Shown in pieces: positions 27,533-31,387 of a DNA stretch of 64,000 nucleotides. Each line of letters begins with the position of its first letter. Positions within the stretch are counted from its first letter, which is position 1. The DNA lies in IMG/VR virus record IMGVR_UViG_3300037190_000626, positions 1 through 64,000 of that record; one strand, written 5' to 3'. Made by a program: the position numbers and the translations under genes. The stretch comes from a virus. The notes under the pieces were generated by a model. That model was not told where the DNA came from and ran no database searches. It was given only the letters and a program-made list of their open reading frames with translations.

Positions 27533-27841
27533 ATGGTAGAACGATTTGGGCCTAGCGTTAGGAGAACACGACGGCCCCCTGACCCTGAGTGGTTAAAGTT
27601 TATGTCCACAGACGAGAAAGAGGCTATGCGGTTAGAGGAGTGGATGCTGACTAGTTTAGCAGACACCGGCCTATCCGTACGTGCTGTCAATTGTCTGGAA
27701 GGAAAAGGTATTTTAACCGTGAGTCAGTTATCTCAGCAAACCAATGACGATTTGTTGGGTATCGTAAACTTTGGGGTACAAACATTGGAACAATGTAAAA
27801 GACTTCTGATGAACATAGGAGTTCCCCACAGTCTAAAGTAA
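27533..27841 (+). CDS. stand-alone RNA polymerase alpha C-terminal-domain-like protein
   Basis: LSVRAVNCLEGKGILTVSQL...DDLLGIVNFGVQTL matches alphaCTD (L.VR..NCL...I..+..L...LL...N.G..SL). Confidence 0.8.
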   Translation: MVERFGPSVRRTRRPPDPEWLKFMSTDEKEAMRLEEWMLTSLADTGLSVRAVNCLEGKGILTVSQLSQQTNDDLLGIVNFGVQTLEQCKRLLMNIGVPHSLK

Positions 27842-27863: not shown

Positions 27864-27895
27864 AAGCCTAGGGTGTGTTGCCCTAGGCTTTTTTT
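27864..27895 (+). terminator. intrinsic terminator
   Basis: AAGCCTAGGG-tgtgttg-CCCTAGGCTT perfect 10-bp stem plus T-run. Confidence 0.8.
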
Positions 27896-27924: not shown

Positions 27925-28689
27925 ATGGCTACAGTTACGAAGACTAGCGCAAAGAAGCCTGCGGCTAACGACCCTTTCGCTAAGACGCGAATTGAGATTC
28001 CCGAAGTGAACATGGATATCTTCAAGTGTCGCCTTATTGGCGAGACCCCGTTGGTTATTCATGCGATGGGTGAAAAGAAGCGTAAGGAAATGCGCGATTT
28101 GATGGGCCCCAAGACGGCGGCCTCTAAGGTGCGACCCCCAAAGGATCAGGCGGGTGAGTACTTTGACGCAATGTATATTTTGAACAATCAGATGGACAAG
28201 GACGGTAAACGCCCTAACCCACATCACAACGATCAGGAATACAGCTACGAAGGTATCTTCGTTCCGCTGGCCTTTGAAGACGCTACTGCGGTTCATGGTG
28301 TGCGTGCTTCCGGGTTCCGGCTCGGTATGGTTCGTGCCGCTAAGAGCTGCGGTGCTGTGATGACGGACACTCGCTGTAACATGCGAGTTAGAAGTCCGTT
28401 TGGCTCGTTCGTCCCGTTGAGCTTTGAGACGGTTGTCTCCCGGGAAGACCCCGTGAAGTTGCAGGGCAACAAGACTGACCTGCGTTACCGCCCTGAGTAC
28501 ACGGGCTGGTCAGTTGACATCGAGATTGAGCACATGTCGGACATCATCGGACCAGAGCAGCTGATTCAGTTGCTGCGTATTTCTGGTCGTACGGTTGGTG
28601 TCGGCGAATGGCGTAATGAACGTGGCGGCGAGTTCGGCGCGTTCGATGTGGATCTGGACAGCGTCGAGCTGGAAAAGAAAACTCTGTAA
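27925..28689 (+). CDS. stand-alone Cas7/RAMP-fold RNA-binding protein, putative effector of the adjacent pentamer-repeat arrays (Vipr-like)
   Basis: N-terminal strand CRLIGETPLVIH, central RYRPEY.GWSVDIEIE, C-terminal Gly-rich loop SGRTVGVGEWRNERGGEFGAFDV typical of RAMPs; start at MATVTK behind AAGGA. Confidence 0.75.
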   Translation: MATVTKTSAKKPAANDPFAKTRIEIPEVNMDIFKCRLIGETPLVIHAMGEKKRKEMRDLMGPKTAASKVRPPKDQAGEYFDAMYILNNQMDKDGKRPNPHHNDQEYSYEGIFVPLAFEDATAVHGVRASGFRLGMVRAAKSCGAVMTDTRCNMRVRSPFGSFVPLSFETVVSREDPVKLQGNKTDLRYRPEYTGWSVDIEIEHMSDIIGPEQLIQLLRISGRTVGVGEWRNERGGEFGAFDVDLDSVELEKKTL

Positions 28690-28871
28690 GTAAAGGGGTA
28701 AACTATGGAACAACAAGATCACTGGCAAGACAGTATACGCATCTTGTTCGCTTGCCCTTGGCATAAAAAGATGAGGGCGTGCCAATTGCTCTGCTTGCTT
28801 TTTGTAGTGGAGTGTCGGCTTGGTTTTTATGCTTGGAGCAGAAAACTATAACTCACGTTGAAAATGGTTGT

Positions 28872-28927
28872 CCGGGGGCAGTGGTGTACTAAGTCTTAGA
28901 CTAAGTCCGAAGCTGCCCCCGGTTTTT
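28872..28927 (+). terminator. GC-rich stem-loop with T-tail (terminator or structured RNA element)
   Basis: CCGGGGGCAG (28872-28881) pairs with CTGCCCCCGG (28913-28922), followed by TTTTT. Confidence 0.55.
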
Positions 28928-28947
28928 ATCTAGAAAGAAGGTAAATT

Positions 28948-29490
28948 ATGAGTAGTGGTTACGATGTAACTGTTGAATTTAGTGCCAAGCCGACTCGTCC
29001 TCTTAGCAATAAGGTGGCTGAAGAGGTTGGTCCTGAGATTCACGCATTGATGCAGAAGAACGAGGGGGACGAGCTTACCCCGCATGAGTACTTGGATTGG
29101 GTTAAGGCAAACCCAAACAGTAAGAGTTACAGTCAGTTTGAGTGGGAAGATACAATTGCTGCGAGAAAGTGGCGAGTTCATCAAGCTCGAAATATCATCA
29201 ATTCGATTGATATTAAGGTGATTGACGAACGCGGCGACGCGGTGAGCGTTCCTGCGTTCATTCATATTACGAGGGCAGACTCGGGTGAGGATGCTCGTCA
29301 GTTGTATACTTCTTACGAAAACGTTCTGAACGACGAGGAAAGCTCTTCACAGGTGGTAGCGAGAGCTTGCCGTGATTTCCTGTCGTGGCGTCGTCGTTAC
29401 CTGCTGCTCCGGGGTAAGCTGCCACTGGCAGACATTTACGATGCGACGGACGTTCTGGCTCAAGAGCTGGAAGCACCGGAAGAAGATTAA
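28948..29490 (+). CDS. conserved partner protein between the RAMP gene and the array
   Basis: LTP..Y...K.NP.S..Y..FEW.D..AA..WR..QAR..I.SI motif of a widespread phage hypothetical family; directly upstream of array 1. Confidence 0.7.
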   Translation: MSSGYDVTVEFSAKPTRPLSNKVAEEVGPEIHALMQKNEGDELTPHEYLDWVKANPNSKSYSQFEWEDTIAARKWRVHQARNIINSIDIKVIDERGDAVSVPAFIHITRADSGEDARQLYTSYENVLNDEESSSQVVARACRDFLSWRRRYLLLRGKLPLADIYDATDVLAQELEAPEED

Positions 29491-29568
29491 TTTGGGAGCG
29501 AATAGTTAGTTTGGAAATCTCGTCAAACAGCGTCGTGGGGACGTAACGCTATTCGTGTGACATGGCAT

Positions 29569-30312
29569 GGCAGTCATGGCGAGGTGTGACATGGTGAGCT
29601 GGGGCTTGTTAAGGTCTGGCGGGGTTAGGTCAGGTAAGGCAGTCTTGGCAGGGTAAGGTGTGTTAAGGCACTGCGAGGTGGGCCACGGTTAGGCGAGGAA
29701 TGGCAGTCATGGTTAGGTTTAGCGAGGCGGGGAGAGGTGCGGCAGGGTGCGGCTGGGCAGTCATGGCATGGTGCGGTCGGTACCGGCGGGGTCAGGAGGG
29801 GTAAGGCTCGGAATGGCAGTCAAGGTGAGGTTAGGCATGGTCTGGAACGTTATGCGCTGGTTTGGAGTGGTAAGGCAGTCGTGGCGGGGTGGGGCCGGTC
29901 TGGGATAGGTCCGGTTGGGTGAGGCAGTCGAGGCGGGGTCTGGTAAGTTGCGTTAAGGCGGGGAAAGGTGGGGTGGGTTACGGCAGTCAAGGCTAGGTGT
30001 GGTGTAGTGTGTCGAGGCGGCGAAAGGTCGGGCAGGGCAGTCATGGTGAGGCGGGGTGTTGCTGGGTGTGTCTGGTTCGGGGCTGGCGAGGCAGTCATGG
30101 CAGGGGGTGGTGGGTAGCGGCGGGGTCAGGAGGGGCAAGGCAGTCATGGTGAGGTGTGACACGATGAGGTGTGACATGGTTCGGCAGTCGAGGTCGGGTC
30201 TGGTTCGATCTGGCAAGCCGAGGCGTGGTGCGTTGAGGCAGGCATGGAATGGGTGGCACGGCGCGGTCAGACCACGGTGAGTAATGGCAAGGCTAGGCAG
30301 CCATGGCGCGGA
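29569..30312 (+). repeat. array 1: 13 units of GGCAGTC-NN-(GGY-NN)7-12, putative guide-RNA array
   Basis: Heads at 29569, 29638, 29702, 29756, 29815, 29874, 29923, 29982, 30036, 30090, 30139, 30183, 30237 (GGCAGGC), 30296 (GGCAGCC); unit lengths 69, 64, 54, 59, 59, 49, 59, 54, 54, 49, 44, 54, 59, all 9+5n. Confidence 0.92.
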
Positions 30313-30326
30313 TATTAACTTTACCC

Positions 30327-30698
30327 CTACTTTTCGCAGCTGCTGCAACGAGCACTCCATCTTGATCTCATCTGAGAGCGAACCGGACGTTCTTGTGCCA
30401 TAACACGTAGGGCCCGAAACGGCATAGTTGTAACTCTTACTGTGGTTCTCACAGTGGCTCTAACAAGCGTTCGAACTGGTTGTGCGTCACGGAGCCTCTT
30501 TGCGGCATTACGTAAGGGAGATCGGCAACTGCGGCCCTCTGCTGCGACGACAGGTTGCTTATCGGCTTCTTGCATACTGACAGCACTAACGTATGACACA
30601 GTTGACGCTTTGGATGCGTGATCACAATCTTGTGCGTTAACAGAGCTGAAAGAGAGAACACTTACGACAACGGCTGAAGCTAAACACTTTTTAAACAT
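30327..30698 (-). CDS. small secreted, Arg-rich protein lying between the two arrays
   Basis: Signal-peptide-like MFKKCLASAVVVSVLSFSSVNA; AGGA SD on the minus strand; PVRTLVRATVRTTVR low-complexity tail. Confidence 0.6.
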   Translation of the reverse strand: MFKKCLASAVVVSVLSFSSVNAQDCDHASKASTVSYVSAVSMQEADKQPVVAAEGRSCRSPLRNAAKRLRDAQPVRTLVRATVRTTVRVTTMPFRALRVMAQERPVRSQMRSRWSARCSSCEK

Positions 30699-30831
30699 GT
30701 CTTTTCCTGTTATTTAAGTGGTAATACGTAATGCTCCTACAAGGGAGCGACAAAATTGTAAATCTTTAATTGCGACACGGCATCCCCAAACCAGAGGTAT
30801 TTTTAAAAATACTCCAAAAAAGAAGTGACGA

Positions 30832-31017
30832 GGCAGTCATGGTTAGGTGCGTACTGGTGAGGTGGGTTCAGGTCAGGCAGGGTGTGGTATGGCAGTCAAG
30901 GCGAGGTATGGTCGGGTGAGACATGGTCGGGCTGGGCGAGGCGAGGAATGGCAGTCAGGGCAAGGTCTGGTTGGGTTTGATTCGGAGGGGCGAGGAGTGG
31001 CAGTCGTGGTGCGGTTG
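30832..31017 (+). repeat. array 2: 3 full units plus a partial unit of GGCAGTC-NN-(GGY-NN)n
   Basis: Heads at 30832, 30891, 30950, 30999; lengths 59, 59, 49; same 5-nt phase as array 1. Confidence 0.9.
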
Positions 31018-31021
31018 CTAG

Positions 31022-31387
31022 ACTTAAGCTTTTGACTTAAGCTTGTGAGTCCTTACGTTAAGTAATATATAAAACAAGGAGGAGTGATGAGACCTGAGTC
31101 ATTTAGGTCAAAACCATTTATTGATTGTTCTAAGTGGGAATGTTGGAATTGCGGTGCAATTCACCATTACATACCTGCTGATTGTCAAAAATGTCGGGTG
31201 AAATTTGTCTCCCGACCTCACTGGGGTGTTCCCGAGAAAAATTCGGAGATCTCTGAAGAGAAGAAAACATCAATATCTTTTGATGAGTTAATATCTGATT
31301 TACTGAAAGGACCAGAAGAAGAGTAACTGCTTGATGCCCTGTATATATTATCTATAGGACTCACAAGCTTAAGTTAAAAGCTTAAGT
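31022..31387. repeat. 32-bp inverted repeat pair flanking a small ORF
   Basis: ACTTAAGCTTTTGACTTAAGCTTGTGAGTCCT (31022-31053) vs AGGACTCACAAGCTTAAGTTAAAAGCTTAAGT (31356-31387), 31/32 complementary. Confidence 0.85.
31084..31326 (+). CDS. small zinc-ribbon protein
   Basis: WECWNCG...DCQKC; AAGGAGG SD. Confidence 0.55.
   Translation: MMRPESFRSKPFIDCSKWECWNCGAIHHYIPADCQKCRVKFVSRPHWGVPEKNSEISEEKKTSISFDELISDLLKGPEEE

Follow-up and report, generated by a model that had tools for sequence, protein, structure and literature searches.

INTRODUCTION

Positions 27925-31017 of the viral DNA analyzed here (the window, 64,000 nt of IMG/VR record IMGVR_UViG_3300037190_000626) hold a gene for a RAMP-like protein, a second gene and G-rich non-coding DNA with a 5-nt period. 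The question raised by this locus is whether these parts make up an RNA-guided system and, if so, what its guides are directed against. An earlier note on this DNA had guessed that the locus belongs to the systems named VIPR, for Viral Interference Programmable Repeat, and had left it to a literature check whether it was a new member or a new class. VIPR, a phage RNA-guided DNA silencing system, was described in 2026; its minimal locus consists of vipr and an accessory gene, vap, predicted to act on DNA, and its guide RNAs (vrRNAs) are recognized as adjacent, same-strand arrays of at least four YNNGG (GGY-NN) repeats (10.64898/2026.04.26.720920). The same report describes seven types and the accessory genes vap1-6 (10.64898/2026.04.26.720920). 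As VIPR is already in print, the locus is a member and not a new class.

The features by which VIPR is defined in print, i.e. Vipr homology, a RAMP fold, a vap-like gene and same-strand arrays, were all found here, in agreement with the guess. We conclude that this DNA, a fragment of the genome of a large marine phage, very probably encodes a VIPR system, in which vipr and a vap-like gene are accompanied by a single vrRNA array on the same strand; its guides are proposed to be aimed at genes that hinder the phage. The order on the + strand is a terminator-like hairpin, a 254-amino-acid open reading frame (ORF), a 174-bp insert, a hairpin followed by a U-run, a 180-amino-acid ORF and G-rich non-coding DNA at 29569-31017.

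RESULTS

The 254-amino-acid protein is a homolog of SUSP1 Vipr

The ORF at 27925-28689 (+), which includes the string quoted in the earlier note (GVGEWRNERGGEFGAF), was assigned as vipr, encoding an ancestral RAMP or Cas7-like protein, from its homology to SUSP1 Vipr and its predicted Csm3/Cas7-like fold. A phmmer search of PDB sequences returned 36pp_D, 'SUSP1 Vipr protein', as the one meaningful entry (E 1.4e-4), and a profile of 38 Vipr homologs matched the same chain with E 1.8e-13. The single-sequence alignment spans 64 residues. It pairs SYRP of SUSP1 with RYRP of the thumb motif, DLRYRP, and GVGDWRP with GVGEWRN of the G-loop, GVGEWRNERGGEFG. In the cryo-electron microscopy (cryo-EM) preprint, residues R138, D177, W178 and R179 of SUSP1 Vipr hold G1, G2 and Y3 of each GGY (10.64898/2026.04.26.720927). 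Their counterparts here are R189, E228 (a D to E change), W229 and R230, while H17 of SUSP1 lies outside the aligned stretch. R189, E228 and R230 do not vary among the 38 homologs, whereas W229 is at least 90% conserved; the GVGEWR..G..G columns of the G-loop are invariant or nearly so. The protein belongs to phrog_4652 and was assigned to no family in Pfam or NCBIfam. Its own family comprises 2182 cluster representatives at E<=1e-3.

The AlphaFold2 model of Vipr (mean predicted local distance difference test score, pLDDT, 86.3) was compared with the PDB by Foldseek, using a library older than the Vipr PDB entries. The top matches were Csm3 and Cas7 subunits of type III and type VII complexes, beginning at E 1.9e-6, and 74 chains were found at E<=1e-3. 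The earlier description of the protein as RAMP-like is therefore supported both by a homolog of solved structure and by the fold of the model.

The model shares an RRM core, glycine-rich loop and thumb with the Csm3/Cas7 backbone of class 1 CRISPR systems (types III and VII), its best structural matches. The locus differs from class 1 CRISPR-Cas in its 5-nt step with 2 nt read per subunit, in having no second RRM or partner RAMPs, and in having no repeat-spacer array. The note had also stated that cas1, cas2, cas3, cas5 and cas6 were absent. This stood for Cas1 (PF01867) and Cas2 (PF09827), neither of which had a match in the 77,959-bp record. A Pfam scan of the ORFs neighboring the locus identified no Cas families; Cas3, Cas5 and Cas6 were not searched for, and the record represents ~35% of the genome. 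SUSP1 Vipr polymerizes with one subunit per fixed RNA step (10.64898/2026.04.26.720927), and the idea that each subunit holds one GGY and displays the NN pair is what the same preprint reports for SUSP1.

The partner gene encodes a Vap-like protein

The 180-amino-acid ORF at 28948-29490 (+), which had been put forward as a partner gene, was classified as vap-like (phrog_15946), as its homologs sit alongside vipr in relatives. Phmmer identified 131 homologous ORFs across the loci of 160 relatives, all on the vipr strand, and in the loci for which vipr coordinates were compared the vap homolog starts directly past the vipr match. The AlphaFold2 model (pLDDT 87.8) contains a winged-helix-like core at about residues 20-125. 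Searches of Pfam and NCBIfam returned nothing, as did a PDB profile search below E 0.5 and Foldseek against the PDB at E<=1e-3. Several published vap genes encode predicted winged-helix- or helix-turn-helix-like DNA binders (10.64898/2026.04.26.720920), a prediction with which the modeled core agrees without proving it. A protein 93% identical to this Vap is encoded on another contig of 155 kb, and homologs that are 56-59% identical sit on contigs of 190-196 kb. Very large marine phages thus seem to be the carriers of this VIPR clade.

The interval between vipr and vap contains a strain-variable insert of 174 bp (28690-28863, +) with a 48-amino-acid Cys-rich ORF (28705-28851) to which Pfam gave no family. 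The insert is missing from contigs of three other marine runs (X2, X3 and X4), which have 11-21 different letters there.

A pentamer-coded array follows on the same strand

The earlier note had described arrays with a fixed GGCAGTC head. We found 16 such heads on the + strand in 29569-30999, of which 12 belong to block A and the other 4 to block B; elsewhere in the window (~62 kb) the heptamer occurs only 4 times, and the - strand has none. Head-to-head distances are 69, 64, 54, 59, 59, 49, 59, 54, 54, 49 and 44 nt in block A and 59, 59 and 49 nt in block B, i.e. all 14 within-block distances (44-69 nt) equal 5n+4. Each of the 14 regular units consists of CAGT and 8-13 YNNGG repeats. When read in the NNGGY register a unit is made of whole pentamers (CAGTC ... 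NNGGC) with its last C shared with the next unit, which accounts for the 5n+4 spacing. Over 145 in-register pentamers the first G is present in 140, the second G in 109 and Y in 116, and the remaining two columns are mixed; sequence variation is concentrated in these NN columns. The 5-nt periodicity is therefore strong, although it is not strict, as had been claimed, since some repeats are degenerate (e.g. AACGT and TATGC).

A window-wide scan for at least 6 of 8 GG at 5-nt steps recovered the array blocks on the + strand only and nothing on the - strand. Tandem Repeats Finder (score 60, whole record) listed no tandem array, because the arrays are too degenerate for this tool, and in keeping with the earlier description no repeat-spacer alternation was seen. 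The arrays were ruled out as coding sequence, as a 5-nt period is unable to hold a reading frame.

Block A (29569-30182, +) contains 11 regular units with heads at 29569, 29638, 29702, 29756, 29815, 29874, 29923, 29982, 30036, 30090 and 30139. It is followed by a decaying end (30183-30326, +) with a 12th head and degenerate heads (GGCAGGC and GGCAGCC), in which the register is lost. Block B (30832-31017, +) contains 3 regular units with heads at 30832, 30891 and 30950 and a truncated fourth at 30999. Between them, a 123-amino-acid ORF with a signal-peptide-like N-terminus (30327-30698, -) lies inside a block that is absent from related strains; it has no family in Pfam, PHROGs or NCBIfam. Contigs of related strains fuse block A straight to block B, with joints at 30048->30938 and 29919->30832. 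Block 30330-30830 is therefore an indel. The two same-strand arrays seen by the earlier note are true of this record, but in view of these joins they are one array that has been split.

Arrays of this kind accompany Vipr homologs elsewhere, as became apparent when homologs were examined for co-occurring arrays, a check that the earlier note had proposed. The first 160 loci of relatives comprised 80 from IMG/VR and 80 from metagenomes, and a strict array was defined as at least 7 of 8 GG at 5-nt steps. Same-strand GG-periodic arrays were present in 37 of the 80 IMG/VR loci, compared with 0/80 on the opposite strand and 0/80 after shuffling. With the metagenome loci included the count was 82/160, and 51/160 loci had at least three GGCAGTC heads. 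Five loci with Vipr proteins 53-59% identical to this one (L084-L088) have 8-23 heads, nearly all 5n+4 apart, and ~46 distinct guides among them, and the NN content of their arrays is entirely different from that of the present array. No guide of the window recurred as a guide in the 160 loci. From these data we conclude that the array grammar is a clade feature and that guide content varies between strains.

These results bear on the possibility that the G-rich 5-nt-periodic tracts are not guides and instead are structural DNA or RNA, being G-quadruplex-prone, an origin or a packaging signal. Such a role would fit the high G content of the tracts, and no RNA run is among those listed for this DNA. 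However, against it stand a strand-specific linkage to Vipr homologs (37/80 on the same strand versus 0/80 on the other), variation concentrated in the NN columns, and the 22/22 gapped match of one guide to hsdM in at least 120 genomes, compared with ~0.07 expected, that is described below. Published biochemistry for the homologous system also argues against it (10.64898/2026.04.26.720920; 10.64898/2026.04.26.720927). We consider a purely structural role highly improbable.

A second possibility is a VIPR remnant, decayed or inactive, whose arrays have gone out of expression or use and whose match to hsdM is a leftover. The degenerate heads that end block A, the foreign block with its minus-strand ORF that splits the array, the terminator-like hairpin between vipr and the rest, and the several repeats that deviate from YNNGG could all be signs of decay. 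Yet vipr and vap are intact and highly conserved, with 98-100% identical Vipr proteins and the 93% identical Vap protein found on other contigs, and 14 units retain perfect 5n+4 spacing. In addition, related marine strains have lost one 69-nt unit exactly and have swapped several units for other repeats. These whole-unit gains and losses between strains indicate ongoing array turnover. The hsdM guide also matches at 22/22 despite containing two degenerate repeats. On balance it is unlikely that the system is a remnant.

One guide matches a conserved motif of hsdM

Guides were tested by the published 1-nt-skip conversion, with NN pairs read as codon positions 1-2. For the guide at 29815-29873 (+), the 11 NN pairs, i.e. 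22 specified bases, give with a 1-nt skip the first two positions of each codon for KDYILTMLFVK, a motif of HsdM. In bacterial contigs with one genome per species this guide had at least 120 exact matches, compared with ~0.07 expected for 596 billion bases, two strands and 4^22 at equal base frequencies. Among the matches listed, all 120 were in frame as K[DE]YILT[MI]LFVK, 115 of them as KDYILTMLFVK, and 119 were located ~30-140 codons into an open reading frame (start codons unmapped); the remaining one was in a 27-codon frame. Querying the same 120 loci with the NN order shuffled, or with the skip set to 0, 2 or 3 nt, gave 0 matches. All 10 of the ORFs tested at these sites are HsdM_N plus N6_Mtase proteins, i.e. 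the hsdM product of type I restriction-modification (R-M) systems, and PADLOC called one matched ORF a type I methyltransferase. When up to 2 mismatches were allowed in Bacteroidota, the guide matched in 6/151 genomes (5/150 that were not preselected), compared with 0/151 for a reversed-pattern control.

The exact match is shared by at least 120 bacterial species of several phyla. In the loci checked hsdS follows hsdM, and in locus L228 hsdR does so as well. In locus L173 the gene two ORFs upstream of hsdM encodes a type IV coupling protein (T4SS-DNA_transf, YWFCY plus TraG/TraD, TraG-D_C), and loci L165 and L239 have the same ORF sizes and order. These three loci, from Mesonia and Flagellimonas, each have, in this order, a 662-amino-acid ORF (the coupling protein in L173), a ~190-amino-acid ORF (a half-size HsdS in L173) and hsdM. 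The gene order suggests that in marine Flavobacteriia a conjugative element carries the R-M system. As a separate observation, in Sinomicrobium oceani a gene for a 763-amino-acid Piwi-domain (prokaryotic Argonaute-like) protein is present right after hsdM-hsdS (L166:1499-3787, -), which places one of the exact targets of the guide in a defense-island setting.

Two further guides have near matches in viral genes

The guide at 29982-30035 (+) nearly matches (19/20) KYVVVEGNRR in the ParB-like N-domains of PD-Lambda-5_A-like proteins. Its 16-base seed had 23 viral matches in IMG/VR. Four ORFs of ~380 amino acids read KYVVVEGNRRL, with 19/20 bases matched, and a fifth of 534 amino acids reads YVVVDGNRRL, with 17/20. 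PADLOC identified PD-Lambda-5_A in the 534-amino-acid ORF at 7e-125, and in the two shorter ORFs tested at 1e-19 to 1e-25 over the N-terminal domain; the target ORFs also match ParB-like PHROGs weakly. For the guide at 29756-29814 (+) the near match (20/22) is to codons of the Walker A motif, (I/M)(I/M)ARPG(H/Q)GKS, in genes for DnaB-type helicases and primase-helicases that are located on viral contigs. Its seed had 78 matches, 60 of which are in ORFs of at least 300 amino acids reading ARPG[HQ]GKS; the best full-guide score, 20/22, was obtained in 19 loci. All six ORFs tested encode DnaB_C helicases, one of them fused to an archaeo-eukaryotic primase (AEP) domain. In five hsdM-bearing genomes neither guide 29982 nor guide 29756 had a useful match.

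For guide 30832, the 16-base seed had 6 viral matches, four of them in long ORFs that read YAL[DE]G[QH]HR (16-19 of 22 bases). DndB (DGQHR) was considered as its target and was unconfirmed: Pfam assigned no ORF to DndB, and PHROGs called three of them ParB-like. A serine recombinase was considered for guide 30036 and was unsupported. None of its 16 seed matches is in an ORF longer than 157 amino acids and 11 are in frames of 49 amino acids or fewer; these matches were treated as noise.

No candidate target was assigned to 9 of the 14 regular guides. The 160 loci of relatives contained no targets, and the hsdM neighborhoods yielded nothing further. Self-targeting was also looked for and not found; outside the arrays, the best guide match in the 78-kb record reached at most 81% of NN letters with skips of 0-3 nt.

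A model for guide use

By analogy with SUSP1, the array would be transcribed with or after vipr-vap, and then cut or trimmed at the CAGT junctions into unit guides. Each GGY would be held by one Vipr protomer with the NN pair exposed, and the resulting Vipr filament would invade double-stranded DNA, pairing with two bases of every three and skipping the third. In the present locus the skipped base would fall on the codon wobble position. Pairing of the NN positions would block transcription, presumably with assistance from the winged-helix-like Vap. All three resolved guides (29815, 29982 and 29756) are in mRNA sense, and pairing with the template strand is therefore expected. The guides would be directed against protein-coding motifs that are conserved in genes hindering the phage, namely a type I R-M operon through hsdM, a PD-Lambda-5-like defense gene and DnaB-type helicases carried by rival elements. 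With the wobble position skipped, one guide could be used against many hosts or elements.

The purpose of such silencing can be read in two ways. We tentatively propose that VIPR serves here as an RNA-guided anti-defense weapon, in which guides against hsdM and PD-Lambda-5 subunit A motifs silence defense operons in many hosts or elements. Alternatively, the guides may serve competition between mobile elements, a possibility that we also put forward with reserve. In this case hsdM, the PD-Lambda-5-like gene and the DnaB-type helicase gene would be conserved genes of rival elements, and silencing them would cripple the rival. The coupling protein two ORFs upstream of hsdM in L173, together with the alike arrangement of L165 and L239, is consistent with competition, as is the location of all PD-Lambda-5_A-like and DnaB or primase-helicase matches on viral or proviral IMG/VR contigs. 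The AEP primase domain of one helicase is of a 'conflict system' family. Moreover, the published natural targets of VIPR are satellites, prophages and other VIPR systems (10.64898/2026.04.26.720920; 10.64898/2026.10.15.759431). However, hsdM is unnecessary for the spread of an element, and it is not obvious that a rival would be stopped by its silencing. The exact match to hsdM extends across many phyla and includes full hsdM-hsdS-hsdR operons and a neighboring prokaryotic Argonaute-like gene, and two of the three resolved targets are defense genes according to PADLOC.

Several results weigh against the overall interpretation of the locus. With respect to expression, the runs that contain this DNA include no RNA run, as mentioned above, and a consensus promoter scan did not find a + strand promoter. 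Furthermore, a strong terminator-like hairpin parts vipr from vap and the array. This terminator-like or attenuator-like element, a hairpin with a U-run at 28872-28929 (+), was identified by RNA folding of 28866-28932, which gave -32.7 kcal/mol (z -4.9) and was equaled by 0 of 200 shuffles; it was not among the elements listed by a consensus terminator scan. As a fold match for Vap, the PadR, Fox, MarR and Fur winged-helix chains aligned to its model by VIA-align reached Z scores of 5.6-8.0, which is middling. The 1-nt-skip rule is established for type II VIPR (10.64898/2026.04.26.720920), and its application to this clade is by analogy.

The same applies to several of the target searches. Only 1 of the 14 regular guides has an exact target. 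The exact full-length patterns of guides 30832, 30036 and 29756 had 0 matches each in IMG/VR; guide 30832 with up to 2 mismatches matched in 0/5 and 0/401 (Bacteroidota) genomes, compared with 1 match for its reversed control; and the seed of guide 30036 yielded out-of-frame noise alone. With respect to purpose, silencing of hsdM after entry would leave the restriction enzyme that is already in the cell, which makes an anti-restriction benefit doubtful. Finally, as a coupling protein lies upstream of hsdM in L173 and ORFs of the same sizes and order are found in L165 and L239, the guide may be directed at a mobile element and not at the host.

Comparison with type II VIPR and anti-restriction proteins

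The closest known counterpart is type II VIPR, of Escherichia phage SUSP1 and a Pseudomonas fulva prophage (10.64898/2026.04.26.720920; 10.64898/2026.04.26.720927; PDB 36pp). The RAMP proteins of the two systems are homologous and agree in their G-loop and thumb motifs, and both systems are phage-borne two-gene operons with an accessory gene and, as far as the present record goes, no CRISPR array. They also share same-strand YNNGG guides, with 8-13 repeats here and 9-16 in the published system. In both, coding DNA is matched with a 1-nt skip that falls on the wobble position, which for this locus was found in silico for one guide. In contrast, sequence similarity between the two Vipr proteins is distant, with 254 amino acids here and 202 in SUSP1, and this locus has 16 heads whereas SUSP1 has 4 vrRNAs. 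In type II, the 3' end of each vrRNA is a conserved tail of ~40 nt with a hairpin or pseudoknot (10.64898/2026.04.26.720920). No such tail or pseudoknot was found here and there was no Rfam match; only the 4-nt CAGT, which with its flanks forms GGCAGTC, is constant between abutting units.

The legend of fig. S18 in the VIPR report describes 'staggered arrays' in which vrRNA positions overlap by 1 nt, the end of one being the start of the next (10.64898/2026.04.26.720920). As the 5n+4 spacing corresponds to pentamers that overlap by one base (CAGTC ... NNGGC, with a shared C), the present array is probably of the staggered form, judged by that legend. The locus thus adds to VIPR a large marine phage with a long, tail-less and probably staggered array.

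What is new here is the guide targets, especially the perfect gapped match to a conserved N-terminal hsdM motif in at least 120 bacterial species. Reported type II targets are a satellite recombinase and prophage regulators, whereas the targets here would be hsdM, a PD-Lambda-5-like gene and DnaB-type helicases. Neither hsdM nor methyltransferase, anti-defense or restriction-modification targets appear in the main texts of the two VIPR papers (10.64898/2026.04.26.720920; 10.64898/2026.10.15.759431). No other study of VIPR targets was found in the literature.

If the hsdM guide is used, phages would possess RNA-programmed silencing of host or element-borne restriction systems, and the wobble-skipping code would have a rationale in that it targets protein motifs, not DNA sequences. 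Decoding NN pairs as codon positions 1-2 also provides a simple way to read VIPR guides. Ocr, ArdA and similar phage anti-restriction proteins are DNA mimics that block the enzyme directly. Use of the hsdM guide against a host would have the same outcome, relief from type I restriction, whereas the route proposed here is RNA-guided transcriptional silencing.

The phage and the neighborhood of the locus

The virus record is a single linear sequence of 77,959 bp, of which the window makes up the first 64 kb. CheckV estimated the completeness of the record at 35%; at 78 kb, this value implies a genome of roughly 200 kb. Phage genes in the record include a large terminase, a family-A-like DNA polymerase, helicases and an SbcC-like gene. 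A comparison of the locus DNA with 50,697 phage records gave no match, and every relative of the DNA polymerase was less than 30% identical. Metagenome runs of marine and seawater samples, made in six studies, contain DNA of the record. No tRNA genes were found in the window, and Rfam at E<=1 returned two rows only, both at chance level.

Downstream of the locus, a 32-nt inverted repeat with 97% complementarity (31022-31053 / 31356-31387) starts exactly where array block B stops. It flanks an 80-amino-acid ORF with two CxxC pairs (31084-31326), and 31022-31387 looks like a small cassette or mobile insert. An invertible segment at these positions was considered and dropped, as the loose contig ends are accounted for by the second copy of the inverted repeat.

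Upstream, a terminator-like hairpin at 27864-27890 (+), with a 12-pair stem followed by TTTTTAT, ends the preceding gene, and vipr therefore starts a new unit. The product of the preceding gene (27533-27841, +), which is directly upstream of vipr and has this terminator as its own, is 102 amino acids long and in essence consists of the C-terminal domain of RNA polymerase alpha, standing alone (PF03118, E 2.7e-13); rpoA models align only through their last ~70 positions. A phage mimic of this domain adjoining a transcription-silencing system is possibly of interest.

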